Shown here in pieces: positions 1,899 through 44,467 of a DNA stretch of 50,146 nt (position 1 is the first letter of the stretch; each line of letters begins with the position of its first letter). Source of the stretch: Pseudomonadota bacterium (GTDB taxonomy: Bacteria; Pseudomonadota; Alphaproteobacteria; Rhizobiales; CAJQND01); the NCBI GenBank assembly GCA_039180225.1, contig JBCDDQ010000001.1, positions 1-50,146 of the forward strand. Reading direction: 5' to 3'. The notes under the pieces are model-generated. The model was not told where the DNA came from, searched no databases, and saw nothing but the letters and a program-made list of their open reading frames with translations. A program made the position numbers and the translations under genes.

Positions 1899-2851
1899 GT
1901 GAAGCTCCAATGGCTGGGGGCGAGACCGGCGACAGGGGCATCGAACCGGGCGATCTGATGGCCCAACAGGCATCCCAGGTAGGCGGTGCTAAGATCAGAG
2001 CCGCCGAAGGCCAAACTGGAGATGTTGCGCAGGACCTTGCCCTTGTTGTCGTCCAGATGCGGCCGGCCCATGGTGCCGGACTGGAAAGCCTCTTCCACCC
2101 AGTCCAAGAAGGTTGGGTCGCAATCTTGTATGAGCAGTTCCTGCTGACCGTCCCGGTCTACCCGGATGACCCGGTTGGAGACGATTGAAGTGATCCAAAA
2201 ACCGCCCTCCCCATCGAATGTCAGCCCATCGGGGAACGTGCCTGAGCCATATTCGGCAATGGTTTGCTTGTTCGACAGATCCCCGTTCGCTGCCACATCA
2301 AACCGCACTGAGCGCCGGGCAAATGTCTCATTCACATAGAGCTGGCCGGTCTGCGGATGGATCAGGCACTCGTTGGTGTACCCCAGGCCATCGGCCACAA
2401 TTCGGGGCCCTTTTGCGTCACTCAAAACGATGAAACCTGTGGAGGCGGTTGGTCTGTAATCATCCCCGCGCGGCTGGATGCGCGTTGAGACGGTGATCCA
2501 CGTCCTGTGGTGGGCATCCACATGCACATAGTTGGTTGGTGGCAGCGGTGTGCCGTCGACCTCCAGCAGATGGGGTTGGAGCGTGCCGTCTGGGTCCAGA
2601 TGATAGACCCCACCGTCGCTGTCCCCCAAATGGGCCAGCAGCCAGCCACCTTTGGGATGCAGAGCAATGCCATTGGGTTTGGGGGTGAAGGCACCCTTGG
2701 CGCGCACTGAGTGCTGGTGGCCGTCTGGCGCGATTATGGTCACACCGCCGCGCCAATCGGCCACGTGCAGGCTGCCGTCCGGCAGGGTCAGGACGCATTC
2801 GGGCCGGGCGAGATCATCGCCGATGAAAGATAGACTATCGAGCGGGATCAT
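1895..2851 (-). CDS. SMP-30/gluconolactonase/LRE family protein
   Basis: 318-aa ORF with beta-propeller-like repeats (PECVLTLPDGSLHVADWRGG, PNGIALHPKGG, PDGLTFDGEGGFWITS). Translationally coupled to the downstream oxidoreductase. Confidence 0.75.
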   Translation of the reverse strand: MIPLDSLSFIGDDLARPECVLTLPDGSLHVADWRGGVTIIAPDGHQHSVRAKGAFTPKPNGIALHPKGGWLLAHLGDSDGGVYHLDPDGTLQPHLLEVDGTPLPPTNYVHVDAHHRTWITVSTRIQPRGDDYRPTASTGFIVLSDAKGPRIVADGLGYTNECLIHPQTGQLYVNETFARRSVRFDVAANGDLSNKQTIAEYGSGTFPDGLTFDGEGGFWITSIVSNRVIRVDRDGQQELLIQDCDPTFLDWVEEAFQSGTMGRPHLDDNKGKVLRNISSLAFGGSDLSTAYLGCLLGHQIARFDAPVAGLAPSHWSFT

Positions 2852-2968
2852 CTGCCCATCCAGGTTTGTTCAACGTCATATCAGGTGGACCATCTTGTGA
2901 AATACCTTCTGAAACACCAGGGCTGTGCTTGCACCGGTTCACCGTTAGACTTAGCATGCGCGGCTAAA

Positions 2969-4279
2969 ATGCGGAGGGGAAAACGCGTGTTACTGGGCTG
3001 TATCGCCGATGATTTTACCGGGGCCACCGATCTTGCCAATGTGCTGACCCGGGGCGGCATGTCTTGTGTCCAGTTGAACGGCCTTGGGGCGCTCAGCAAT
3101 GGTGCAGCAGGGCGGGTGGCCGGCGCAGATGCTGTTGTCGTTGCCCTGAAAAGCAGGTCTATCCCGGCTGCGGACGCTGTTGAACAGTCCTTGCAGGCGC
3201 TCACATGGCTGCGTGCGCAAGGATGCGTGAAGTTCTTCTTCAAGTATTGCTCCACTTTTGATTCCACAGACGAAGGCAATATTGGCCCGGTCGCCGAAGC
3301 GCTCATGGAGGCTTTGGGCGCGGATTTTACCATCGCCTGTCCGGCGGCACCGGAGAACGGCCGCACGGTCTATCAGGGCCATCTGTTTGTAAACGGTGTG
3401 CTGCTCTCCGAAACAGGCATGCGGCATCATCCGATCACGCCGATGACCGATGCCAATCTGGTGCGCGTGCTTGGCCGTCAGAGTGCCGGGGAGGTGGGGT
3501 TGATCGAGACCCCGGTGGTTCATGCAGGCAAGGCGCCTATTGCGGAGCGGATCGGACAGTTGCGCGCAGACGGTATCCGGCTGGCGATTGCCGATGCAAT
3601 CAGCGCGGCAGATCTCGTTGCGCTTGCCGATGGCACGGAGGATCTGGCCCTTCTGACCGGCGGTTCCGGTCTTGCTGTGGGGTTGCCGGATCTCTTCAAG
3701 CGCACCGGGCGCTTGGATGGGTCTGGTGCAACGCTGAATTGGCCGATCGACGGATACGGCGCGGTGATCTCCGGCAGTTGTTCGCAGGCGACCAACGGGC
3801 AGGTTGCTGTGATGAGCAAGACACATCCGGCCTTGGCGCTCAGCCCGGCTGCGCTCGCGGCTGATCAGGCCGGGGAGATTGAGAGGGCGGTTCAGTTCGT
3901 GGTGTCCCATCAGTCCGATGGTCCCGCCCTGGTCTTTTCGACCGCACCGCCAGATGAATTGGCTGCCGTGCAGGCCGCGCTTGGCCAAGAGCAGGCGAGC
4001 CAGCTGATCGAGACGGCCATGGGCGAGATTGCGCGGCGGCTGGTGGCGGGCGGCGTCAGGCGCCTGGTGGTTGCCGGCGGGGAGACGTCTGGAGCAGTGG
4101 TGACCGCGCTTGGGCTGGACACTCTGGCGATCGGGCCAGAAATCGACCCGGGTGTGCCCTGGACGCTCGCTCTGGGAGAACCGGACCTGGCTCTGGCGCT
4201 GAAGTCCGGGAACTTTGGCGGGCCGGACTTTTTCAGCAAGGCCTTTTCTGTCTTGGATGACCTGGCGGCAGCGGCATGA
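2969..4279 (+). CDS. otnK: Four-carbon acid sugar kinase family protein (DUF1537/YgbK; 3-oxo-tetronate kinase-like)
   Basis: LLGCIADDFTGATDLANVL N-terminal signature and C-terminal VVAGGETSGAVV nucleotide-binding motif. Start set at the internal ATG 2969. Stop overlaps the next gene as ATGA. Confidence 0.65.
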   Translation: MRRGKRVLLGCIADDFTGATDLANVLTRGGMSCVQLNGLGALSNGAAGRVAGADAVVVALKSRSIPAADAVEQSLQALTWLRAQGCVKFFFKYCSTFDSTDEGNIGPVAEALMEALGADFTIACPAAPENGRTVYQGHLFVNGVLLSETGMRHHPITPMTDANLVRVLGRQSAGEVGLIETPVVHAGKAPIAERIGQLRADGIRLAIADAISAADLVALADGTEDLALLTGGSGLAVGLPDLFKRTGRLDGSGATLNWPIDGYGAVISGSCSQATNGQVAVMSKTHPALALSPAALAADQAGEIERAVQFVVSHQSDGPALVFSTAPPDELAAVQAALGQEQASQLIETAMGEIARRLVAGGVRRLVVAGGETSGAVVTALGLDTLAIGPEIDPGVPWTLALGEPDLALALKSGNFGGPDFFSKAFSVLDDLAAAA

Positions 4280-4908
4280 GTGAACGAGAGCTCCGAGAAC
4301 AGATTGCCCGGTTCGGCCGCTCCTTGTTCATGCGCGGCTATAGCTGCGGGTCTTCGGGCAATATCTCAGTGAAGCTGGACGATGGGGTTCTGGTGACGCC
4401 CACCAACTCGTGCCTTGGTTTTCTGGAGCCGGACCGCATTTCCAAAGTGACGTTCGATGGCAAGCATCTGGCGGGTGATCCACCGTCAAAAGAGAGTTTC
4501 TTCCATCTGGCCCTTTATGAGGAGCGCAAGGACGATACCGCAATTGTTCACCTGCATTCACCGTATTTGGTTGCCGTTTCCTGCCTTGCGGATGTGAATG
4601 AGGAGGACGTGCTGCCGCCTCTTACGGCCTACTATGTGATGCGCGTTGGCAAGCTGCCGTTGGTGCCCTATTTCCGGCCCGGGGATAAGGCTCTGGCCGA
4701 CGCGGTGCGCACTTATGCCCGTGAACATCATGCCATGCTGCTGGCCAATCATGGGCCGATTGTCTCCGGCAAGACTCTGGATGCGGCGGTCTACGCGGCT
4801 GAGGAGTTGGAGGAGACCGCCAAACTCTACTTGTTGCTGGAGGGGCGGGCGACCCGACTGTTGAACGCGCACCAAATCGCAGACCTCCACGAAGCTTTTC
4901 CCACCTGA
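4276..4908 (+). CDS. otnC: Class II aldolase/adducin family protein (3-oxo-tetronate 4-phosphate decarboxylase-like)
   Basis: GSSGNISVKL, VLVTPTNSCLG and IVHLHSPY motifs typical of the YgbL/OtnC class II aldolase fold. Coupled to the upstream kinase. Confidence 0.65.
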   Translation: MSERELREQIARFGRSLFMRGYSCGSSGNISVKLDDGVLVTPTNSCLGFLEPDRISKVTFDGKHLAGDPPSKESFFHLALYEERKDDTAIVHLHSPYLVAVSCLADVNEEDVLPPLTAYYVMRVGKLPLVPYFRPGDKALADAVRTYAREHHAMLLANHGPIVSGKTLDAAVYAAEELEETAKLYLLLEGRATRLLNAHQIADLHEAFPT

Positions 4909-6537: not shown

Positions 6538-8544
6538 CTAAAAAGCCACGCACCGGCCGAACTCATAGAAGAACCCGGGCGGGCACACATCGTAGCTCGG
6601 CCCCCGGTAGCGCCGGCGCACGCAGCGGCTGCCTTGGCGCCGATATCCGGGGCCGCAATACTCCGCAACGAAACGGCGGTGCACGCATTCTCCCTCTAGA
6701 TACACGTAGCGACGCGGGCAGCGGGCCCGACGCTGTTTACGCTGCGGCTTGGGTCTCAGCTGAGGATCAACATTGACGGTCTTTGGAGGTTCATAGCGCG
6801 CGCATTCAGCCGACTTCACCCCGCAGCTCTTCAACATGCTGCACAGCGCACGCCGTGAGCCCTTGAGCTGGAAAGAGGCCGCAAAAGGCGGCGCGGAAAC
6901 GGTGAGCTGATTGGCGCTCATGAGATCGCGCACAATGCGGCTGCTGGTGGAAAAGCCTTTCGATGCATCACCGATCTCTAGTTCCCCAGTAAGACCGGCA
7001 ACCGATGCGGGTACGGCGTGTTTGGCGCCTGTGTCAAAGCTCAGCGGCAAGGAGGCGCCGGCTGCCTCAAGCGCTTTCAGGCCGCGCTTCATGCGTCCAT
7101 CAAAGTCGGGATAAACCCCCCGTTTCTTCTCGCGCAGAATGGCTGAAATCTGCTTTTTCGGGCTGCAATAGGCCAGGAATTCAAGGCCGTTTGCTTCCAC
7201 GCCGGCTGCCGGAGAGGACGCGTTGCCCTCATCTTGCACATACTTGAAAGGGCGCCAGGCGGACTTGCCCGGTCCAAGGTTCACCGTCTCTTCCACTTCT
7301 GGTTCCGCATCCGGCACCACCGCCGCAGCCTGATCGCTGCCTTGAAGGCGTTTCACGTAGGCACGCGCGAGATCCGAGCGCACGCCTTCGGGGAAATCGC
7401 GCAAGTATGCCTGCCAACCCTCCAACGTATTGGTTTCAAGGGCGGTTTCGAAGGCCTCTTTCGCCGTGGGGGATTCCTCCGGGGCAGGTGGTGTCGTCTC
7501 CCTGGTTGCAACGCTGGGCTCTTCATCGAAGCTGGCGGCATAGCTGGTGCAATCGGCCAGGAAGTTGAGGATCGGGTCGGTGGCACCGGAGAGGGAGACG
7601 GCGACGGTCTTGAAGCTGTTCACCTGATAGTCGATATCCGGCAGCTCCTGCAGGGTCTCCCACAGGGCGTCGTCGTTCTTGACGGTGATCCGGGCACCGG
7701 ACACCGGTTCGTTCGCGCCCTTGGCAACCACGGTTCCATCAAAGGTGTGGTCTTTACTGTTGCCGGTGAAGGCCACTTTAACAGAGGCGGCTTCTTCCAG
7801 ATCACCGGTCTCAGAGCTGAGCTTCAAGACCGATACATTGTTCTTAAAGCCCACCGCGCAGTACCCCTGCATCAGCACGTTGTCCGTGTCTGGCGAACTG
7901 ATGGTGAGTGTGGATGCGCTCTTGCCCTCATTGGCTTCGTCCTTGAACTTCCGATACGTCCATTTCAGCTGCGGGCTGGCTTCAGGCTTTTCTTCCGTTT
8001 CTGCTGTGGTTTCTGGTTCCGGGGTGGTTTCCTCTGCGTCGTCCGGCGCCACAGTGATGGCTTTTTGCTCGTCAGCAGGCTTGGTTTCTGCCACTTCGGG
8101 CTCGGGTTCTGGTTCGACCTGCGGAGGCTCTTCAGCGGCGACGTCCTGCTCTTTCTTTGGCTCCGGTTCCGGCGTGGCGGGTGCGGGCTGCTCTGCGGCC
8201 ACATAGCCCTCGCACTGCCGGAAGGTGCCTTTCACCTGGACCTTGCGTGAACACAAAACCCCACCCCATTTGTAGCCGGTCTTGCCATCGTCAAACTCGA
8301 TCTTGAACCAGGGGAAGCCATTCATCTGGACTCCGGTGTCTTCCAGGAGCTTAACCGTGTCGCCCTCTTTCAGGCCGGCCACCTGCTTGAAGCTGGAGCC
8401 GGGCCCGGTGCGCACTTTGCCGCCCCAGGAACCAGCCTCCACGGGAAATGTGTTTTGCGCCTGAGCCAGGGGGCTCAAGAGCAACGTGGTGGCCGCGACG
8501 GCAAGTGTTTTGGTCAGCAGTTTCAATCGAGGAGCCATAGTCAA
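6538..8544 (-). CDS. Secreted SH3b-domain protein with an acidic Pro/Glu linker, two related internal modules and a basic Cys-rich C-terminal repeat
   Basis: Signal peptide MTMAPRLKLLTKTLAVAATTLLLSPLAQAQ and an SH3b-like segment (GGKVRTGPGSSFKQVAGLKEGDTVKLLE...WFKIEF). The linker is EPEPE-rich. The C-terminus carries three C-x2-G-x5-G-x-C-V motifs. Confidence 0.7.
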   Translation of the reverse strand: MTMAPRLKLLTKTLAVAATTLLLSPLAQAQNTFPVEAGSWGGKVRTGPGSSFKQVAGLKEGDTVKLLEDTGVQMNGFPWFKIEFDDGKTGYKWGGVLCSRKVQVKGTFRQCEGYVAAEQPAPATPEPEPKKEQDVAAEEPPQVEPEPEPEVAETKPADEQKAITVAPDDAEETTPEPETTAETEEKPEASPQLKWTYRKFKDEANEGKSASTLTISSPDTDNVLMQGYCAVGFKNNVSVLKLSSETGDLEEAASVKVAFTGNSKDHTFDGTVVAKGANEPVSGARITVKNDDALWETLQELPDIDYQVNSFKTVAVSLSGATDPILNFLADCTSYAASFDEEPSVATRETTPPAPEESPTAKEAFETALETNTLEGWQAYLRDFPEGVRSDLARAYVKRLQGSDQAAAVVPDAEPEVEETVNLGPGKSAWRPFKYVQDEGNASSPAAGVEANGLEFLAYCSPKKQISAILREKKRGVYPDFDGRMKRGLKALEAAGASLPLSFDTGAKHAVPASVAGLTGELEIGDASKGFSTSSRIVRDLMSANQLTVSAPPFAASFQLKGSRRALCSMLKSCGVKSAECARYEPPKTVNVDPQLRPKPQRKQRRARCPRRYVYLEGECVHRRFVAEYCGPGYRRQGSRCVRRRYRGPSYDVCPPGFFYEFGRCVAF

Positions 8545-21929: not shown

Positions 21930-24044
21930 ATGTCAAACCATGAATTTCACAATCGGGTTCTCGATGCACGGCCGGACCGAATAGACTTTCGCGACAGGCC
22001 CTATTCTCCGCCGCTTGTGTCCCTGCCGGCCTCGTTCCCATCTGAAGAAGAGATCTCTCACTATCTGCCCGAGTACCACCGGACGTCAAAGATCCTTGAC
22101 CAGGGCCGGGAAGGTGCGTGCACGGGCTTTGGGCTTGCGGCGGTCATCAACTACACTCTGTGGGACAACTGGCTGCGCAGGAACGGCGGTGACCTGAAGG
22201 CGGGGGATCGCCCGGAACATGTCAGCCCGTGGATGCTCTATGACAACGCACGGGTCTACGATGAATGGGAGGGGGAGGACTATTCCGGCTCAAGCTGTCG
22301 CGGTGCCATGAAGGGGTGGCACAAGCACGGGGTGTGCCGGTCAGAGTTGTGGGAAAAACGCAGCAGGCGCGATCCCCGACCGCATAAATCCTGGAGTTCG
22401 GATGCCGCGCTGCGCCCGCTGGGCGCCTACTACCGGGTCGATGTGCGCTCGATCAGTGACATGCAGGCGGCGGTCCGCGAGGTGAGGGCCGTCTATTGCT
22501 CCGCTCGTGTGCATGCCGGCTGGTGGTTGGAAGGCCAGCAGAAGACCCAATCCATTGCGGGTCTGGAACTTCCCTTGATCAAACTCCACCAGAAGATCAC
22601 CGGCGGACATGCCTTCGCCGTTGTGGGGTACACGCCCTACGGTTTCATTGTGCAGAATTCCTGGGGGCCCCGCTGGGGTATGAAAGGTTTTGCGGTTCTG
22701 ACCTATGACGATTGGGCCCGCAATGGGGACGATGCCTGGGTGGCGGCCATTGCCGCGCCCATGCGTGTCGCCGAGAAGGTCTCCGTACCTGCCGCCCGCT
22801 CGCGCGGCGGATCGGAAATGTCCTCTTCAACCCTGAGCGCAGCGCTTGAGACCACAGCCAGCAAAGGGCCGTGGAACGAGGCCAAGGCCTATGAGCATTC
22901 GGTTGTGATGGGCAATGACGGCAAGGTGTTGCGGCGCCTTGTGGACACGGCCGATCCTGCCGACAATCTGCGCAAGGTTGTTTTTGAACTGCCGAAGGCG
23001 GCAATCGCCAGCGGCAAGAAGCGCATTCTGATTTATGCCCATGGCGGGCTGAACAGCGAAGAAGATGCGATCAACCGCGCCCGCCACCTGGGACCCTGGT
23101 TTGATGCCAACGGCATTCACCCGATCTTCCTGGTGTGGCGCACCTCTTTGATGGAGTCCATCGGACAGATCGGTGGCGACATCGTGGGGCCGTTCCTGAA
23201 GCAACGCGAAGAGATGCGTTCGCGCGGCATTGGAGACCTTGTGGACCGCGCTCTGGACAAGATGCAGAACAAGTTCGACAACGCCTTCGAGGCCGCCGCG
23301 GAGAAGGTTCTGGGCAAAGCGGTTTGGTCACAGATGAAACAGAACGCTGAAGCCGCCGCCAACGGCAACGGTGGCACGCGGCAAGTGACGCTTACGCTGA
23401 AAGAACTGAGTAAGGCACAACCTGATGCATCTTTCCATATGCTGGGGCATTCGGCAGGCTCGATCCTGCTGGGTCACATGCTGGACGACATGGACCCCGA
23501 CATCAGGCTTGGCACATTGGGGCTTTATGCGCCCGCCTGTTCACTGCGCTTTGCGGTCAGGCACTTCGGGCGGGCCTTCAAATCAGGCGTGTTGGCATCC
23601 GGCCAGCTGCATGTGGACAATCTGACCGACAAAAATGAGCGTGATGACACGGTGGGGCCTTACGGCAAATCGCTGCTCTATCTTGTGAGCCGGGCGTTCG
23701 AAGATCCCCGAAAGATGCCTCTGATGGGGTTTGAAAAATGCTGGGATCCGAGCACCAGCGATCTGAAGGAGCTCAAAGAGCAGTTTGGAGCCGACTTTGC
23801 CGACGGTCATATCAAGGACATTCGCGACTGGGATGCGATTGCTGATCAGTTCGGCGTTGAGCACACGGCCCACAAGCAAAAGCAGGTTGTGACCAGGACC
23901 TCGGCAAATGGTGCTGCGGAGCTGAAAATCGACATTGCGCACGGCAGCTTTGACAACGATATTGCGGTGGTCAGCGGTTCGGTGGCCAGGGTGTTGGGTC
24001 AACCCAAACCCAAGGTTCCGATCACGAATCTGATTGGGTTTTAG
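21930..24044 (+). CDS. Fusion of a papain-like cysteine peptidase (C1) with an alpha/beta-hydrolase (DUF900/lipase-like)
   Basis: The N-terminal domain has the full Q-C-H-N set: DQGREGACTGF (Cys64, 22119..22121), GGHAFAVVGY and QNSWGPRWG. The C-terminal domain has ILIYAHGGLNSEEDA and the nucleophile elbow GHSAG (Ser508, 23451..23453). No signal peptide. Confidence 0.75.
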   Translation: MSNHEFHNRVLDARPDRIDFRDRPYSPPLVSLPASFPSEEEISHYLPEYHRTSKILDQGREGACTGFGLAAVINYTLWDNWLRRNGGDLKAGDRPEHVSPWMLYDNARVYDEWEGEDYSGSSCRGAMKGWHKHGVCRSELWEKRSRRDPRPHKSWSSDAALRPLGAYYRVDVRSISDMQAAVREVRAVYCSARVHAGWWLEGQQKTQSIAGLELPLIKLHQKITGGHAFAVVGYTPYGFIVQNSWGPRWGMKGFAVLTYDDWARNGDDAWVAAIAAPMRVAEKVSVPAARSRGGSEMSSSTLSAALETTASKGPWNEAKAYEHSVVMGNDGKVLRRLVDTADPADNLRKVVFELPKAAIASGKKRILIYAHGGLNSEEDAINRARHLGPWFDANGIHPIFLVWRTSLMESIGQIGGDIVGPFLKQREEMRSRGIGDLVDRALDKMQNKFDNAFEAAAEKVLGKAVWSQMKQNAEAAANGNGGTRQVTLTLKELSKAQPDASFHMLGHSAGSILLGHMLDDMDPDIRLGTLGLYAPACSLRFAVRHFGRAFKSGVLASGQLHVDNLTDKNERDDTVGPYGKSLLYLVSRAFEDPRKMPLMGFEKCWDPSTSDLKELKEQFGADFADGHIKDIRDWDAIADQFGVEHTAHKQKQVVTRTSANGAAELKIDIAHGSFDNDIAVVSGSVARVLGQPKPKVPITNLIGF

Positions 24045-37305: not shown

Positions 37306-38889
37306 ATGATCCAATCCGCGCTCAAGATCTTCATTGGCGCCGTCTTTGTGCTTTGTCTTCATGTTTCAGCGCAGGCTGACAAACGCATTGCGCTTGTAAT
37401 CGGCAACTCCGTCTATAAGCATGTTCCGCGCCTGGCCAATCCCGTCAATGATGCCCAGGATATCGCCACCGCATTGAAACGCCTTGGATTTGACGTCCGT
37501 AAGAAGACTGACCTGGACTATGGCGGCCTGCGCCGCGCGTTGCGCGATTTCAGCCGACAGGCGGCAAGGGCCGAGTTTGCCGTGGTGTATTATGCCGGTC
37601 ACGGCATGGAGGTGAACAAGCACAACTATGTCATTCCCGTGGATGCGGAGCTCAAATCGGATCTTGATATCGAATATGAAGCGGTGCCGCTCGATCTGAT
37701 GATGAATGCCGTTGAGGGGGCCAGCAAGCTCAAACTGGTGCTGCTGGATTCCTGCCGCAACAACCCGTTTGCCGCGTCCATGAAGGTCACGTCCGGCAAG
37801 CGTTCGATCGGGCGCGGTCTTGCCCGTGTCGAACCGGAGGTCGGAACGCTGGTGAGCTTCGCTGCCAAGGAAGGCACAACCGCTGACGATGGCGATGGGC
37901 GCAACAGCCCTTACACAACCGCGCTGTTGAAGTATCTCGAAGAGCCCGGTCTTGAAGTCCAGTTTCTGTTCCGCAAGGTGCGCGATGCCGTTATGGCCTC
38001 AACCAACAAGCGCCAGCAGCCGTTCACTTATGGCTCTCTTCCGGGCCAGAAGATCTATCTGACGGCCCCGCAGGCGGGCACAGTGACCGCGTCCGCTGCA
38101 TCGAGCGATCTGCAAAGGCAGCTGGACGAGCTGCGAAAGGAACTGCGGAAAAAGGATCAATCGGTCAATCAGGTTGGGGAACTGAAGAAGCTGCTGGAAC
38201 GCCAGAAAGCAGAGTTCGACAAGCTGAAGCGCGAGGCCGAAACGGCAAAACGGAAGCAGGCGAAGCTCCCCTCTGCCACGGCGCCTGCGCCGGAGCCTTC
38301 GGTGGCAACCATTCACCGGCGCGCGCTCGCGGCCTACAACAACCGGAACTACCGCGAAGCGCTGCGCCTTTATCGAACGACCGCCGACAGGGGCGACAGC
38401 ACCAGCATGAACTATATCGGTTTCATGTACTCCGCAGGCAAAGGTGTCGCGCAAGACTATAGAGAGGCCGCGCGCTGGTACCGCAAGGCGGCTGAGAAGG
38501 GTCATGGGGTGGCAATGAGCAATCTCGCGCGCAGGTATCTCTATGGCCAGGGCGTGGCCAAGAATTATGCAATCGCGCTTCGCTGGTACCGCAAGGCGGC
38601 CGACAAGGGCATATCGGCCGCCATGGGCGATCTTTCCTACATGTATGGCAATGGTTTTGGCGTCACCCAAAGCACCTCTGAGTCGGTGAGGTGGATGGCG
38701 CTCGCACTCAAGAACGGCGATGACCAGGCTATCCAGTTGCTGTCGACACGATCAGAAGAATGGAGCCGGTCTTGGCGCAGGCAACTGCAAAAGGTCCTGC
38801 GCTCTGAAGGCTACTACAGGGGTTCGATTGACGGCTCTTTCGGGCCGGGGACGTTGAACGCCATCAAGCGCTACGCCGGAAAACAGTAA
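37306..38889 (+). CDS. Exported caspase-like peptidase (C14) / coiled coil / Sel1 repeats / peptidoglycan-binding domain
   Basis: Signal peptide, then KRIALVIGNSVY. The catalytic dyad is YAGHG (His99, 37600..37602) and LLDSCRN (Cys150, 37753..37755). Four Sel1-type repeats follow (AARWYRKAAEKGH, ALRWYRKAADKG). The C-terminus is LQKVLRSEGYYRGSIDGSFGPGTLNAIKRY. Confidence 0.8.
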   Translation: MIQSALKIFIGAVFVLCLHVSAQADKRIALVIGNSVYKHVPRLANPVNDAQDIATALKRLGFDVRKKTDLDYGGLRRALRDFSRQAARAEFAVVYYAGHGMEVNKHNYVIPVDAELKSDLDIEYEAVPLDLMMNAVEGASKLKLVLLDSCRNNPFAASMKVTSGKRSIGRGLARVEPEVGTLVSFAAKEGTTADDGDGRNSPYTTALLKYLEEPGLEVQFLFRKVRDAVMASTNKRQQPFTYGSLPGQKIYLTAPQAGTVTASAASSDLQRQLDELRKELRKKDQSVNQVGELKKLLERQKAEFDKLKREAETAKRKQAKLPSATAPAPEPSVATIHRRALAAYNNRNYREALRLYRTTADRGDSTSMNYIGFMYSAGKGVAQDYREAARWYRKAAEKGHGVAMSNLARRYLYGQGVAKNYAIALRWYRKAADKGISAAMGDLSYMYGNGFGVTQSTSESVRWMALALKNGDDQAIQLLSTRSEEWSRSWRRQLQKVLRSEGYYRGSIDGSFGPGTLNAIKRYAGKQ

Positions 38890-40644: not shown

Positions 40645-40675
40645 GTGCCTCGGATATCAAATCCGGGGCACTTTT
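40645..40675 (+). terminator. Rho-independent terminator after the cyclase gene
   Basis: GTGCCTCGGAT-atcaa-ATCCGGGGCAC forms 11 bp including one G-U, followed by TTTTCTCC. Confidence 0.75.
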
Positions 40676-40780
40676 CTCCAGCAGCTGCAATATGCGGCCT
40701 TGAGAATTCCTCAATGGCCAGATCTGCAATCGTGTTACTGTCAGCTCCCTAGGGTCCCCTCGTAGTGATGGGCAATTGGA

Positions 40781-42355
40781 ATGACAGAGGTCGACAGTTG
40801 GCCGGTGTTCATCTGTTACCGGCAATCGGACGGCAAAGACTCCGCTCGCTGGGTCCATGACCTGCTGCGGGAAAGGCCTGTGCCGGTTGTCGAACATGAC
40901 GCCGGTGACCACGACCCGCCTAAGTTGGATGTGTACTTTGATCAAACCGCTCCCGGTGTGGGTGACTGGACGGCAATACACGAGCCCTATCTGAAACTCT
41001 CGCGCGCCTTCATCATTATCTGCACGCCCGGCGCAAAGCTCAACGAAGGGGAAAACGACTGGGTGCATTTGGAGATAGACTGGTGGCTGGACAACCGCCA
41101 GGAGGCCCCGATCATCGTCGATCCGCTGAATGAGGGGGACCGCTATATCCCCACAGCGATCAAAGAGCGATGGCCGAACGTCCAACGCATCACGCTAGAC
41201 GTTGCTGACTGGAACAATCTGCCCGCCGATGAGCAGTCAACGATCGAGGATCGCAAGAGCGCTCAGTTTTTCGGGGGCATCGTTCCCAGCGGAACCAATG
41301 TGCTGCGCCAGGAACTGGATGCAAAGCAGCGCACGGCAGAGCGTTTGGCCGGTGCCCTAAGACGATCGCGCCTGTTGTTGGCTGGAACGGTCGGTCTTTT
41401 TGTGTTGGCGGTGGCCGCCGGCGTTTGGGCCTGGAACGAGCGGCTTGAAGCTGAACAGCAGGCTGCGATTGCCACCAACGCCAGGAACGTGTCGGAACGC
41501 GCCAAGGACCGGGCTCTGCACGCAGCCAAGGTGAGCCGGCAAGCGCTGTACACCTCGTTTGTCGATGCGCATGCCACGAGCAGGTTGAACCTTGAAAAGC
41601 TGCCCCGGGACGCAGCAACGCAGAATGAATTCGCCATAACGGGAAACAATCTGGGGTTCTTGTTGATCGATCGGTTGAGCGGTGAAAACCGGAATGCCGA
41701 GCACGCGCTGCAGCTCTTTGAGCAGTTGCGCGATAAGTACCCTCATTTCCAAGCGGGCTCCAACTTTTCAGGCGATCTCTTGCTGGAAGAGAAGATTACC
41801 GATGTGGGCCTGGCCCTGGCGCAGGGGCTCCAGAAGCTGGGTGATTTGGAAGCGGGCGCGCAGGCGTTGGCAACGCTGACACCTTCTGAGCGTCGGCGGA
41901 CCCGATGGAAGGAAAACGTGTTTCGCGCCTTTCTGGAGCTGTCCAACCATCGGTTCACCCAAGGGAACTATCAAGGCGCCTTTGAGGATGCGAAGCTCAT
42001 TCTCAAGGCTCTCGACCGGTTTCCCGCAGACAACGCGATTGGGTATCGTCTGCGCGCCAGGGCCTTCGGGAAGCTCTCATGGAACGCACTGTTTGTTCGC
42101 GATTTTGAGCGCTCTGCAACTGCTGCAAGCAAGGCGATTGAGCTCATCGAAGCTCACGGCATGGGGGGGCTTGAGTTTGTCTATTTGAACCGCGCCCACG
42201 CTTTTGCTTTTGCCAACAACGCCAAAGAAGCCGGCAAGCTTTACGGTGCGGTTGATGGCCAGATGTTGGCGAACGACATTCAGGCCTTGGCGAAGGCAGG
42301 TTTATGCCATGAGCTTTTTCGTGCATATTTGAAGGACTACTCCTGTGCCAACTAA
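40781..42355 (+). CDS. TIR domain / single TM helix / helical (TPR-like) repeat protein
   Basis: N-terminal WPVFICYRQSDG and NDWVHLEIDWW (Glu98, 41072..41074) are TIR-like. The hydrophobic helix LLLAGTVGLFVLAVAAGVWAW is at ~41369..41434. The ~300-aa C-terminal region is helical repeats. Confidence 0.7.
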   Translation: MTEVDSWPVFICYRQSDGKDSARWVHDLLRERPVPVVEHDAGDHDPPKLDVYFDQTAPGVGDWTAIHEPYLKLSRAFIIICTPGAKLNEGENDWVHLEIDWWLDNRQEAPIIVDPLNEGDRYIPTAIKERWPNVQRITLDVADWNNLPADEQSTIEDRKSAQFFGGIVPSGTNVLRQELDAKQRTAERLAGALRRSRLLLAGTVGLFVLAVAAGVWAWNERLEAEQQAAIATNARNVSERAKDRALHAAKVSRQALYTSFVDAHATSRLNLEKLPRDAATQNEFAITGNNLGFLLIDRLSGENRNAEHALQLFEQLRDKYPHFQAGSNFSGDLLLEEKITDVGLALAQGLQKLGDLEAGAQALATLTPSERRRTRWKENVFRAFLELSNHRFTQGNYQGAFEDAKLILKALDRFPADNAIGYRLRARAFGKLSWNALFVRDFERSATAASKAIELIEAHGMGGLEFVYLNRAHAFAFANNAKEAGKLYGAVDGQMLANDIQALAKAGLCHELFRAYLKDYSCAN

Positions 42356-42369
42356 GATGGGGTGGGCCG

Positions 42370-43224
42370 ATGAAGGCAGTCAACACATCGAAGCTTGGCC
42401 TCGCACTCTGCGGGCAACTGGCGTTCGTATTGCTCGCTGTCTGGCTTTGGGCCAGCCCGGCCAGCGCAACGGCGTCATGCCTTGTCGCAGATCCAGCAGA
42501 TCCTACCTTGAACGTCCGAGACGCGCCGCGCGGCAAGGTCATCAACCGGCTGAAAAATGGGCGGAATGTGTTCATTCTGGAAAACAGGCTTGATGCCAGG
42601 AACAAGCTTTGGGCGAAAGTGGGTGGGGCCTATCGCGGCACATGGCGTGAGTGGGGCTGGGTGTTTCAAGCTCATCTCAAATGCTCAATCGACGGAGCGC
42701 TGGAATCCCGCACAGGCCGGGTGGAGAAAGTGCACACGAGAGATCTCGCGGCGAACGGGATTGGTTGGTTCGTGAACCTTGGGGTGGCGTGCCCGTATCA
42801 GGGCGATGGACACACGCTCTCTTTTGCACCTGATTTTGTATCTCAGTACACAAAGCAAGGCTTTTCGCTGACGGCAATGTGCCTGGGGCTTGCCAGCGAA
42901 GGCGTGAACTATGATCCGGAGGACGGAACACCCATCGCTCAGTATGAACCCGTCGGAGAAGATGGCATTAGCGGGCGCTACCCGTTCTTCCTTCCGCGTT
43001 GTTTCCGAAGCGTCAGGATCTTGGCCGGGCAGAACACCGCTTGGGTGAGGTGGAAGCCGGACGGGTGCACGCTCACTTACCATCCCGTAACGGGCAAACG
43101 CCTCAGAAACTCAGGCGATGTTGTGGTGACCACCGGGGCGGAAGCCGGCGATGCCAGCCCGGAACCTGATGCGGACACGTCGGTCACCAATGCCAGATTG
43201 CGGGCTCTGCTGCGCAGAAACTAG
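42370..43224 (+). CDS. Secreted SH3b-like protein with an uncharacterised Cys-containing C-terminal domain
   Basis: Signal peptide ([17 protein letters not shown]), then [39 protein letters not shown]. Starts 15 bp after the TIR gene stop on the same strand. Confidence 0.6.
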
Positions 43225-43336: not shown

Positions 43337-44467
43337 ATGGCCTATAACGAACCATCCTTCACTCTTGGCATCGAAGAAGAATACCTTCTGGTCAACAAGG
43401 AGAGCCGCGACCTGGTGCGTGAAACGCCGGCGGGGCTCATGGAGGCCTGTTCTGAGGCGCTTAAAGATCAGGTGAGCCCTGAGTTTCTGCAATGTCAGAT
43501 CGAGGTGGGCACCCGGGTGTGCGATACCCTCCAGGATGCCCGCGACGAGCTCACCATGCTGCGCTCGTCCATCGCCGACGTGGCCGGCCAGTTCGGCCTT
43601 GCGCCCATTGCCGCCTCAACCCACCCGTTCGCCAATTGGAAAGATCAGCACCATACCCACAAAGAGCGCTACGACACTCTGGCCCGCGACCTGGGCGGCG
43701 TGGTCCGGCGCATGTTGATCTGCGGCATGCATGTGCATGTGTGCATCGACGATGAGGATATGCGGATCGACATTCACAACCAGCTGTCCTACTTCCTGCC
43801 CCACCTTCTGGCGCTCTCAACCTCTTCGCCCTTCTGGCAGGGCCAGGACATGCAATTAAGAAGCTATCGCCTGGTGGTGTTCGATGCTCTGCCGCGTACG
43901 GGCCTGCCGCCCCAGTTCGGCTCGTTCGGAGAGTATGAACGCACCGCCAATGTGCTGGTTCAGGCGGGTCTCATCGAGGACACCTCGAAGATCTGGTGGG
44001 ACCTGCGGCCCTCTGCCCGCTTTCCCACTTTGGAGATGCGGGTCTGCGATGTGCCCACCCGGCTGAACGACACATTGGCCATTGCGGCGCTTTATGTGTG
44101 CATCGCCCGCATGCTCTACCGGCTCAGGCGCAACAATCAGCGCTGGCGGCAATATCCCAACTTCCTGATCGACGAGAACCGCTGGCGCGCCCAACGCTAT
44201 GGCATGGAGGAAGGGCTGATCGACTTTGGCCTGGGCGCGGTGGTGCCTTATGCCGAACTGGCTGAGGAGATCATCGAGCTGGTGCGCGAGGATGCCGAGG
44301 CGATGGATTGCGTGGCTGAGGTGGAGCATATCCGCCAGATTGTCAAAGAGGGCACCAGCGCCGACCGCCAGCGCCGGGTCTACGCTGAGGCCATGGCCAA
44401 AGGCGCAGACGCGGACGAGGCGCTCCAAGCGGTGGTGGACATGCTGATGGCCGAAACGGTGGCGTGA
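43337..44467 (+). CDS. ybdK: Carboxylate-amine ligase (glutamate-cysteine ligase family 2)
   Basis: [18 protein letters not shown] and WWDLRPS motifs of the YbdK/GCS2 family. Start at ATG 43337. Confidence 0.85.

Follow-up and report, generated by a model that had tools for sequence, protein, structure and literature searches.

The window, by which we mean the whole stretch of DNA analysed, is an entire contig (JBCDDQ010000001.1, 50,146 bp) from a metagenome-assembled genome (MAG) of an alphaproteobacterium. On its forward strand lie two adjacent genes, which are the subject of this work: gene 1 encodes a protein with an N-terminal TIR domain, one predicted transmembrane (TM) helix and a long helical C-terminal region, and gene 2 encodes a protein predicted to be secreted, hereafter the partner. 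An earlier reading of this DNA by eye, called here the original prediction, had proposed both reading frames, at 40781..42355 and 42370..43224, and both were confirmed. The product of gene 1 is identical to an entry of the same MAG annotated 'hypothetical protein [Pseudomonadota bacterium]'. The features of the pair are listed below, each with what supports it; models were made with AlphaFold2 (AF2).

40781..42355, + strand: gene 1, the TIR-TM-helical receptor gene, an open reading frame (ORF) from the ATG at 40781 to a TAA ending at 42355, 524 aa
40796..41215, + strand: predicted cytoplasmic TIR domain of a SARM1-like subfamily, aa ~6-145 (Pfam, hhalign, AF2)
41072..41074, + strand: GAG codon of Glu98, the putative catalytic glutamate (invariant in 30/30 relatives; aligned to SARM1)
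41225..41365, + strand: predicted cytoplasmic stalk helix leading from the TIR domain to the membrane, aa 149-195 (AF2)
41366..41434, + strand: predicted single TM helix, aa 196-218 (Kyte-Doolittle peak 2.26)
41435..42352, + strand: predicted extracytoplasmic all-helical region, aa 219-524 (AF2 at low confidence; weak TPR_16 match)
41855..42340, + strand: conserved C-terminal TPR-like module that co-occurs with the partner, aa ~359-520 (hhalign, tail motif)
42356..42369, + strand: intergenic spacer of 14 nt, gatggggtgggccg, with a purine-rich stretch (read from the sequence)
42370..43224, + strand: gene 2, the gene of the predicted secreted partner, an ORF from the ATG at 42370 to a TAG ending at 43224, 284 aa
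42370..42468, + strand: predicted signal peptide, aa 1-33, cut between ASA and T (read from the sequence)
42475..42684, + strand: SH3b-like beta-barrel, aa 36-105, bracketed by the invariant Cys37 and Cys105 (AF2, Foldseek)
42685..43221, + strand: C-terminal domain (C-domain) with four conserved cysteines, Cys141, Cys171, Cys211 and Cys233 (family alignment)

The two genes are 14 nt apart in the window, and in another locus (L030; loci, L, and proteins, P, are cited by our working numbers) an upstream gene, whose last 61 residues carry the tail shared by the receptors discussed below, overlaps the partner start by 4 nt. Such short distances imply co-transcription, so that genes 1 and 2 would form one operon. 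At the other loci the gap between receptor and partner, always on the same strand, ranges from -4 to 92 nt.

The N-terminus of gene 1 contains the segments VFICYRQSDG (aa 9-18) and NDWVHLEIDWW (aa 92-102), in which the original prediction had seen a TIR-like domain. The domain is significant at the level of the family. A homologue search gathered 31 proteins including the query, the other 30 sharing 40-84% identity with it over the first ~180-250 residues; 26 of these 30 aligned homologues match TIR_2 (PF13676) individually at E<0.01, with a best value of 1.5e-6, and one homologue bears a precomputed PF13676 annotation. Searched against all PDB sequences (hmmsearch), a family profile of the N-terminal 195 residues retrieved chains of SARM1 and of C. 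elegans TIR-1 together with two weak chance matches, the best whole-sequence E being 8.6e-4. The direct comparison of the family profile with the human SARM1 TIR domain by hhalign gave a probability of 95.4% (E=1.8e-8, 99 columns), pairing 'PVFICYRQSDG' with 'DVFISYRRNSG' and 'DWVHLEI' with 'DWVHKEI', and it set Glu98 on the SARM1 glutamate. In the structure 6o0v this residue is at chain position 86, which we take to be the catalytic Glu642 of SARM1, assuming a construct made of a 3-residue tag followed by SARM1 from residue 560. Along the family alignment Glu98, Trp94 and Asp93 never vary and His96 hardly does, and the placing of Glu98 where NADase TIR domains have their catalytic glutamate, already suggested by the original prediction, therefore holds.

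The structural model goes in the same direction. Over residues ~11-240 the mean predicted local distance difference test (pLDDT) is ~90, falling to 74-85 at ~31-70; aa 6-145 show the beta-alpha alternation of a TIR-like core at a pLDDT mostly of 85-96. Foldseek matched it, with probabilities of 0.96-1.00, to TIR structures of IL-1RAcPb, TLR15, SARM1 (target TM-score 0.63), SPARTA, AbTir and L7. PADLOC found only weak TIR-effector matches on gene 1. From the sequence comparisons it can be considered settled, at the family level, that the protein of gene 1 begins with a TIR domain, which belongs to a bacterial subfamily resembling SARM1 and whose putative catalytic constellation is intact. The domain bears the residues to be expected in a TIR that cleaves NAD+, and it would have this activity.

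Downstream of the TIR domain AF2 draws one continuous helix from aa 149 to aa 272, with a pLDDT of 85-93 until about aa 240, which would make up the cytoplasmic stalk, the TM segment and an outer stalk. Its cytoplasmic stalk portion contains a motif, 'LRQELE', that is conserved across the SARM1-like TIR family. The one TM helix announced by the original prediction was found again, at aa 196-218 by Kyte-Doolittle hydropathy, and it occupies the same position in 29 of 30 relatives; among the SARM1-like TIR proteins the L006 version seems, by eye, to lack it. The receptors with a TIR_2-type domain, described below, likewise carry one such helix, and the hydrophobic segment is 20-23 residues long in the receptors. 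In the window protein its N-terminal side is rich in arginine (net charge +4) and its C-terminal side acidic (net -2). As the N-terminus of gene 1 has no leader, as the charges obey the positive-inside rule and as the partner is secreted, we infer a single-pass protein with the N-terminus in and the C-terminus out, that is a cytoplasmic TIR domain and an extracytoplasmic aa 219-524. As to the fold of this ectodomain, the models justify no more than 'all helical, TPR-like'. The original prediction of about 300 aa of helical repeats stands in so far as the region is all-helical and TPR-like; the repeats are not of the Sel1 type, and they are only weakly detectable in the window protein.

The partner starts with a hydrophobic leader segment (aa 6-31), and close partner homologues have an AxA-type signal-peptidase site 3-5 residues before the invariant Cys37. 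Export of the partner by a predicted Sec-type signal peptide is thus strongly supported. The barrel that follows was modelled with a pLDDT of 72-91, and its top Foldseek matches are bacterial SH3b domains, from endolysins and peptidoglycan hydrolases (probability 1.0, E from 1e-3 upward). The window partner itself has no Pfam match at E<=0.1; SH3_3 (PF08239) is matched by 12 of 36 members of the partner family, and in the orthologue P0033 it comes with E=1.9e-5 and 25.2 bits against a cutoff of 27. According to the model the barrel would take the fold of the SH3b (SH3_3) cell-wall-binding domains. It differs from them in that no hydrolase domain accompanies it, that an invariant Cys pair brackets it, and that a C-domain of no known family comes next.

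This C-domain, of ~180 residues, carries the motifs 'RGFS', 'FDPETG.RLP.Y' and 'YHP.TG'. Its assignment to a family failed: neither Pfam, run on the 36 members, nor a profile search of the PDB gave a match, and AF2 with Foldseek yielded no assignment. The original prediction's description of the partner, as a signal peptide, an SH3b-like module and a cysteine-containing domain that could not be assigned, agrees with these results. Eight of ten mature partner sequences contain 6 or 10 cysteines, which fits with disulfides in an oxidising compartment; those of the L014/L023 type contain 5. An exhaustive search with the partner profile returned 1,271 clusters, most of which have only the SH3 module in common with it, and the C-domain is present in ~50 of the 150 best; one further homologue, P0037 (36%), lies on an 89-kb NCBI contig. 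The C-domain sometimes stands alone as well: several cluster representatives match only profile positions ~110-280, and the third of the partner copies on a 4.9-kb contig (L012) carries the Cys-rich C-domain behind a signal peptide, the SH3 module being absent.

Which part of the receptor the partner accompanies is the central result. We considered that it might travel with the SARM1-like TIR subfamily, and this was rejected: among nine genomic loci only that of the 77%-identity orthologue (L001) has a partner within 8 kb. At the eight remaining loci, where this TIR subfamily carries other C-termini, no partner lies within that distance. Moreover L001 shows a synteny identical to that of the window, hence its partner is uninformative on linkage. 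In these other members of the subfamily the SARM1-like TIR-TM module is fused to WD40 propellers (up to ~800 aa), to a region with a trypsin-like annotation (PF13365, precomputed) or to a ~200-aa domain ending with 'MNDEGDM'.

Partner homologues appear, on the other hand, behind receptors with another TIR domain. In a metagenome (L013) one directly follows a 747-aa TIR_2 protein (E=6e-24) with one TM helix and TPR repeats; on L012 a TIR_2 (5e-21)-TM-helical gene precedes three tandem diverged partner copies (2491..4677); and in L028/L029 an intact 629-aa TIR_2-TM-helical gene is followed by the partner P0038. A search with the region after the TM helix retrieved more TIR_2-TPR proteins, and the four that were looked up all adjoin a downstream partner homologue (blastp E 1e-29 to 1e-48). 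Altogether the partner lies directly 3' of a receptor in the window, L001, L012, L013/L027, L023, L024, L025/26, L028/29, L030 and L031. Counted without redundancy, a TIR-TM-helical gene bearing the tail and a partner gene are adjacent at 9/9 informative loci, in at least five neighbourhoods; L014 is cut at the partner start, is therefore uninformative and stays outside this count. The sets of flanking genes are:

DUF3299 and cyclase genes, the pair, YbdK gene
DUF2585 gene, the pair, HD and adenine glycosylase genes
VIT1 gene, the pair, DUF1810 gene
MFS gene, the pair, Usp gene
L012, the 4.9-kb contig, on which no flanking genes were identified

At most of the partner-linked loci the TIR domain belongs to a different, canonical TIR_2 subfamily, so that two unrelated TIR subfamilies occur in all. 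What the receptors have in common is their last ~155 aa (hhalign A6 vs A5: probability 96.9%, E=1.4e-10, 154 columns). The motif of this tail reads 'L.W.ALF...N.AHA..F....EA...Y', and its part 'N.AHA..F....EA...Y' is found in L012, L013, L028 and L030. A tail Cys pair, 'GLC...C', is kept in the types of the window, L012, L028 and L030; in the window receptor the two cysteines of the module are Cys509 and Cys522. The linked receptors of the TIR_2 type also retain a glutamate at the catalytic position, in the contexts 'CAWEV', 'CRNEV' and 'CEWEV'.

The partner is thus linked to the ectodomain tail and not to the TIR subfamily. The simplest reading of these data is that the tail and the secreted protein work together, the TIR output domain having been swapped between lineages. 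The two-gene unit of the original prediction is thus borne out in the adjacency, which extends beyond close orthologues, and amended in its object, the tie being with the tail module rather than with the TIR subfamily. Two observations made in passing concern the loci used here: the receptor gene of L012 is split over three reading frames, by sequencing error or as a pseudogene, and the metagenome matches L015-L022 are unrelated SH3 proteins with no TIR gene nearby, which were discarded.

These results also bear on the explanation by incidental adjacency, in which the hydrophobic segment would be no membrane span, the protein would be a cytoplasmic TIR-TPR sensor like TIR-II of E. coli, and the SH3 gene would be unrelated. 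Cytoplasmic TIR-TPR defence systems made of a single protein do exist (PMC11350192). Nevertheless chance neighbours are hard to reconcile with nine adjacent pairs out of nine across different flanks and TIR subfamilies; a helix of 20-23 residues, at a conserved position and obeying the positive-inside rule, is poorly explained without a membrane, and so is a conserved Cys pair in the ectodomain tail. We consider this explanation barely credible.

The constant part of the SARM1-like proteins deserves a mention of its own. The TIR-stalk-TM cassette ('WPVFICYRQSDG...DWVH.EIDWW') is the same in the window (40781..41365), in loci L004-L011 and in proteins P0003-P0031, and its hosts are Hyphomicrobiales, Hoeflea, Chloroflexia, Latescibacterota and Vicinamibacteria MAGs. 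Its varied C-termini give this cassette the appearance of a separate repertoire of receptors.

Compared with SARM1, the TIR domain of gene 1 has in common box 1, 'VFI.YR', and 'DWVH.EI', with the Trp, the His and the catalytic Glu in register. It differs by an identity of ~28% over the 99 aligned columns, and by its surroundings: gene 1 has no ARM or SAM domains (Pfam gave TIR_2 and a weak TPR_16), and its TIR domain, placed at the N-terminus, appears to be joined to a TM helix and an ectodomain. To find a TIR domain like that of SARM1 in a bacterium is in itself nothing new, since the SARM1 TIR is reported to nest within a bacterial TIR clade (PMC13142454).

The topology proposed in the original prediction, that of a Toll-like receptor in reversed order, was recovered, with the TIR domain N-terminal, then the TM helix, then the helical ectodomain. 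Besides the order, two differences separate gene 1 from Toll-like receptors: its ectodomain appears TPR-like and helical and gave no leucine-rich repeat match, and TIR domains of its type belong to the enzymatic SARM1-like or TIR_2 class, not to the scaffold type. The secreted, cysteine-containing partner encoded beside the receptor recalls Toll and Spaetzle, i.e. a receptor with an endogenous ligand or co-receptor. We take the resemblance to Toll-like receptors as an analogy of logic only; no homology is evident beyond the TIR fold.

The bacterial TIR systems in the papers searched are cytoplasmic sensors or signal generators, and where TM segments occur they are in effectors or partners (PMC11350192, PMC7159879, Thoeris preprint). 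The original prediction had set the locus apart from them, and in the literature searched the characterised prokaryotic systems—Thoeris, TIR-STING, TIR-SAVED CBASS, SPARTA and TIR-II among others—indeed all sense cytoplasmic cues. The closest in composition are E. coli TIR-II and BcTir/Tpr, which join TIR and TPR either within a single protein or as two genes of an operon, and which depend on the TIR catalytic residue (PMC11350192; bioRxiv 10.1101/2023.05.26.542521). Their descriptions there speak neither of a TM helix between TIR and TPR nor of a secreted partner, both of which are predicted here. Thoeris resembles our pair by a TIR gene and a second gene in a small operon; the second gene differs, being here a predicted secreted SH3b/Cys-rich protein rather than a nucleotide-binding effector such as SLOG, Macro or SLATT. 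No ThsA-type effector (SIR2/SLOG, Macro-TM or similar) was found beside the TIR gene, the partner and the neighbours having no PADLOC match. We did not find this two-gene module described in the literature searched, the coverage of which was incomplete. What seems new here is a bacterial TIR domain of enzymatic type in a transmembrane sensor arrangement that would depend on a partner.

We therefore favour, with a probability of about 0.6, the reading that the pair is a transmembrane TIR receptor of two components, whose ectodomain and secreted partner control the assembly of the cytoplasmic TIR domains and their cleavage of NAD+. The architecture and the linkage described above are its observed basis; what is said below on ligand, NADase activity and biological role is prediction. 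The secreted protein would act as a co-receptor, as a cell-wall tether or as an endogenous ligand by binding the TPR-like module at the C-terminus of the receptor, and its SH3b domain might contact peptidoglycan. A cue from the envelope or the cell wall would change the receptor-partner complex and, through it, the oligomeric state of the stalk. TIR NADases of SARM1, of plants and of bacteria need oligomeric assembly to form their active site. As self-association is required in this way, clustering of the receptor could bring the TIR domains together and switch on the hydrolysis or cyclisation of NAD+ in the cytoplasm, the output being either NAD+ depletion or a nucleotide signal. Because no separate effector gene is conserved with the pair, direct depletion of NAD+, or a signal read by an unlinked protein, would be favoured.

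This receptor could be taken one step further, to a true outside-in bacterial TIR pathway: the ectodomain and the secreted SH3b/cystine-stabilised protein, as a co-receptor or a Spaetzle-like endogenous ligand bound to the cell wall, would detect events in the periplasm or at the cell wall and, by way of the stalk helix, trigger the assembly of the TIR NADase. We hold this to be possible, though clearly against the odds. The wider SARM1-like TIR-TM family, with its WD40, protease-like and other C-termini, would then be a receptor repertoire.

Several points weigh against the favoured reading of the pair as a two-component receptor. Taken as a single sequence, the window protein matches TIR_2 over aa 9-114 with E=7.4e-5 and 23.7 bits, which is under the Pfam gathering score of 28. 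The Foldseek E-values of the TIR domain are only ~1e-2, and Ras-like folds are interleaved among the TIR structures. A conserved glutamate does not guarantee an NADase activity either, since some non-enzymatic TIR domains of Toll-like receptors retain it (PMC7075850). In the ectodomain, beyond about aa 250, the AF2 pLDDT is <60, since the model there draws on only two sequences; for the C-domain of the partner AF2 confidence is low too, and the model is too poor for a meaningful structure search. The direct binding of the partner to the ectodomain is a prediction. Finally the loci sampled are few and stem for the most part from MAGs and metagenomes, and those that are named are Hyphomicrobiales-type alphaproteobacteria.

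The genomic context adds to these points, and it bears particularly on what the pair could be for. The window is an ordinary stretch of chromosome, in which the pair has cyclase-family, DUF3299 and YbdK genes as neighbours; further genes of the window encode a PhzF-family protein, an SspB-family protein (by synteny with L001), the murein endopeptidase MepA and peptidoglycan-binding proteins. The search for defence genes nearby, suggested with the original prediction, was run on the neighbours with PADLOC and Pfam: none of the neighbours has a PADLOC match, and no defence gene is adjacent. Relatives of either gene were found neither in plasmid collections (tblastn) nor in viral collections (contig scans). 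The pair and its relatives sit in syntenic housekeeping settings, unlike typical anti-phage systems, and the synteny is kept within each lineage (L001; L013/24/25/27), so that the pair looks vertically inherited and not mobile. This tempers the anti-phage reading. The housekeeping context without defence genes nearby likewise does not favour an immune role over other roles in envelope signalling.

A dedicated abortive infection directed against phages or predators is a special case of the favoured reading, with a committed role: damage to the periplasm or the wall, or a foreign protein, would be sensed by way of the SH3b partner and the TPR ectodomain, and NAD+ depletion by the TIR domain would kill or arrest the cell. 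Characterised bacterial enzymatic TIR proteins are overwhelmingly components of defence (PMC11350192, Thoeris preprint), and the weak PADLOC TIR-effector matches mentioned above agree with this. Other features speak for it as well. The C-termini of the N-terminal TIR family are highly variable and sensor-like; the three tandem diverged partner paralogues of L012 would be expected under a diversifying pressure; and the GC content at third codon positions (GC3) of the pair, 0.66-0.68, is slightly below that of its immediate neighbours, 0.75-0.79. The absence of adjacent defence genes, the synteny across relatives, which suggests vertical inheritance, the lack of the pair in the plasmid and viral collections, and the lack of a separate effector gene nevertheless lead us to consider such a committed role rather unlikely.

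The same housekeeping context, together with MepA and the peptidoglycan-binding proteins of the window, would suit a different explanation, in which the TIR domain is a non-enzymatic scaffold, or an enzyme acting on another nucleotide, and the pair serves as a housekeeping module for envelope or peptidoglycan homeostasis in Hyphomicrobiales-type bacteria. SH3b domains typically bind the cell wall, and the glutamate kept by certain non-enzymatic TIR domains (PMC7075850) is compatible with it. However, the SARM1-type W-x-H-x-E motif and the box-1 residues are strictly conserved, and the TIR_2-type receptors with the same partner keep their glutamate in each of the contexts given above. Besides, the presence of two TIR subfamilies on the same ectodomain points to a common TIR output rather than to a scaffold peculiar to one lineage. 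This explanation appears to us quite improbable.

The control of an inside TIR domain by an outside ligand domain is a hallmark of the animal Toll-like and IL-1 receptors, for which the literature searched describes no bacterial counterpart. The locus is a concrete candidate for it, being a module of two genes that is conserved and whose predicted topology is clear, and it makes testable a long-standing question, namely whether bacteria have outside-in TIR receptors. If the module is active, it would show how the assembly of a TIR NADase can be gated across a membrane, and would add a class of receptors that sense the periplasm or the cell wall. If the outside-in pathway were true, these receptors for immunity or stress would be the first TIR receptors of prokaryotes to sense outside the cytoplasm, and functional analogues of the Toll-like receptors. 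If on the contrary the pair had a housekeeping function in the envelope, a bacterial TIR domain would be working outside immunity, which is uncommon. The locus may also bear on the bacterial ancestry of the SARM1-type TIR domains, as the closest solved relatives of the TIR domain of gene 1 are those of SARM1.

Two features precede gene 1 on the DNA, as follows.

40645..40675, + strand: hairpin and T-run closing the upstream cyclase-family gene, the 5' boundary of the pair (folding)
40676..40780, + strand: region upstream of the TIR gene, 105 nt, containing a block (~40704..40741) conserved with L001

The original prediction had the pair behind its own strong terminator and a 105-nt upstream region and before ybdK; the hairpin, the region and a YbdK-type gene were indeed found there. 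The hairpin (40645..40671) with its T-run is stable, with a folding energy of -23 kcal/mol and z=-4.76, equalled by 0/200 shuffles; it is missing from the output of a simple terminator scan at 40645..40675. At the corresponding place in L001 (~7875..7905, the 77%-identity relative) the hairpin after the cyclase gene is kept with base changes and the T-run is deleted, so that its role as an intrinsic terminator may not be conserved. In the upstream region a block of ~38 nt, 40704..40741 ('GAATTCCTC.AT.GCC.GATCTGCAATCGTG.TACTGT'), is nearly identical in L001, and DNA alignment shows the intergenic DNA around it to have diverged. This block may be a regulatory site, for which it is a candidate. 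A promoter scan 5' of the TIR gene, conserved block included, found no consensus sigma-70 promoter.

The gene 3' of the pair encodes a YbdK-type carboxylate-amine ligase (NF010039, 3e-163). In the segment 43151..43337 a long form of its ORF (438 aa) extends over the last part of the partner gene. Translation probably begins at the ATG at 43338 instead, 113 nt after the partner gene, because the NCBIfam alignment begins at residue 66 and the orthologue has 376 aa.

On the other side, ~1.9 kb 5' of the TIR gene, 37306..38889 (+) encodes a secreted protein of 527 aa with a caspase domain (Peptidase_C14, 1e-39), a coiled coil, three Sel1 repeats and PG_binding_1. It was thought of as a part of the module and set aside, as it is absent at the syntenic L001 locus; it is thus probably no member. 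Upstream of it the segment 32691..37043 (+) carries an AraC-type regulator, a TonB-dependent receptor and a siderophore-interacting FAD-binding protein, with a GC3 of 0.53-0.56 against ~0.7-0.8 elsewhere; this is probably a horizontally acquired iron-uptake block. A second secreted SH3_3 protein, of 668 aa, is encoded at 6538..8544 (-), distant from the TIR pair, with SH3_3 at aa 41-91 (E=2e-9) as its sole annotation. The 704-aa product of 21930..24044 (+) has only a marginal Peptidase_C1 (papain) match, at the gathering threshold with 20.7 bits.

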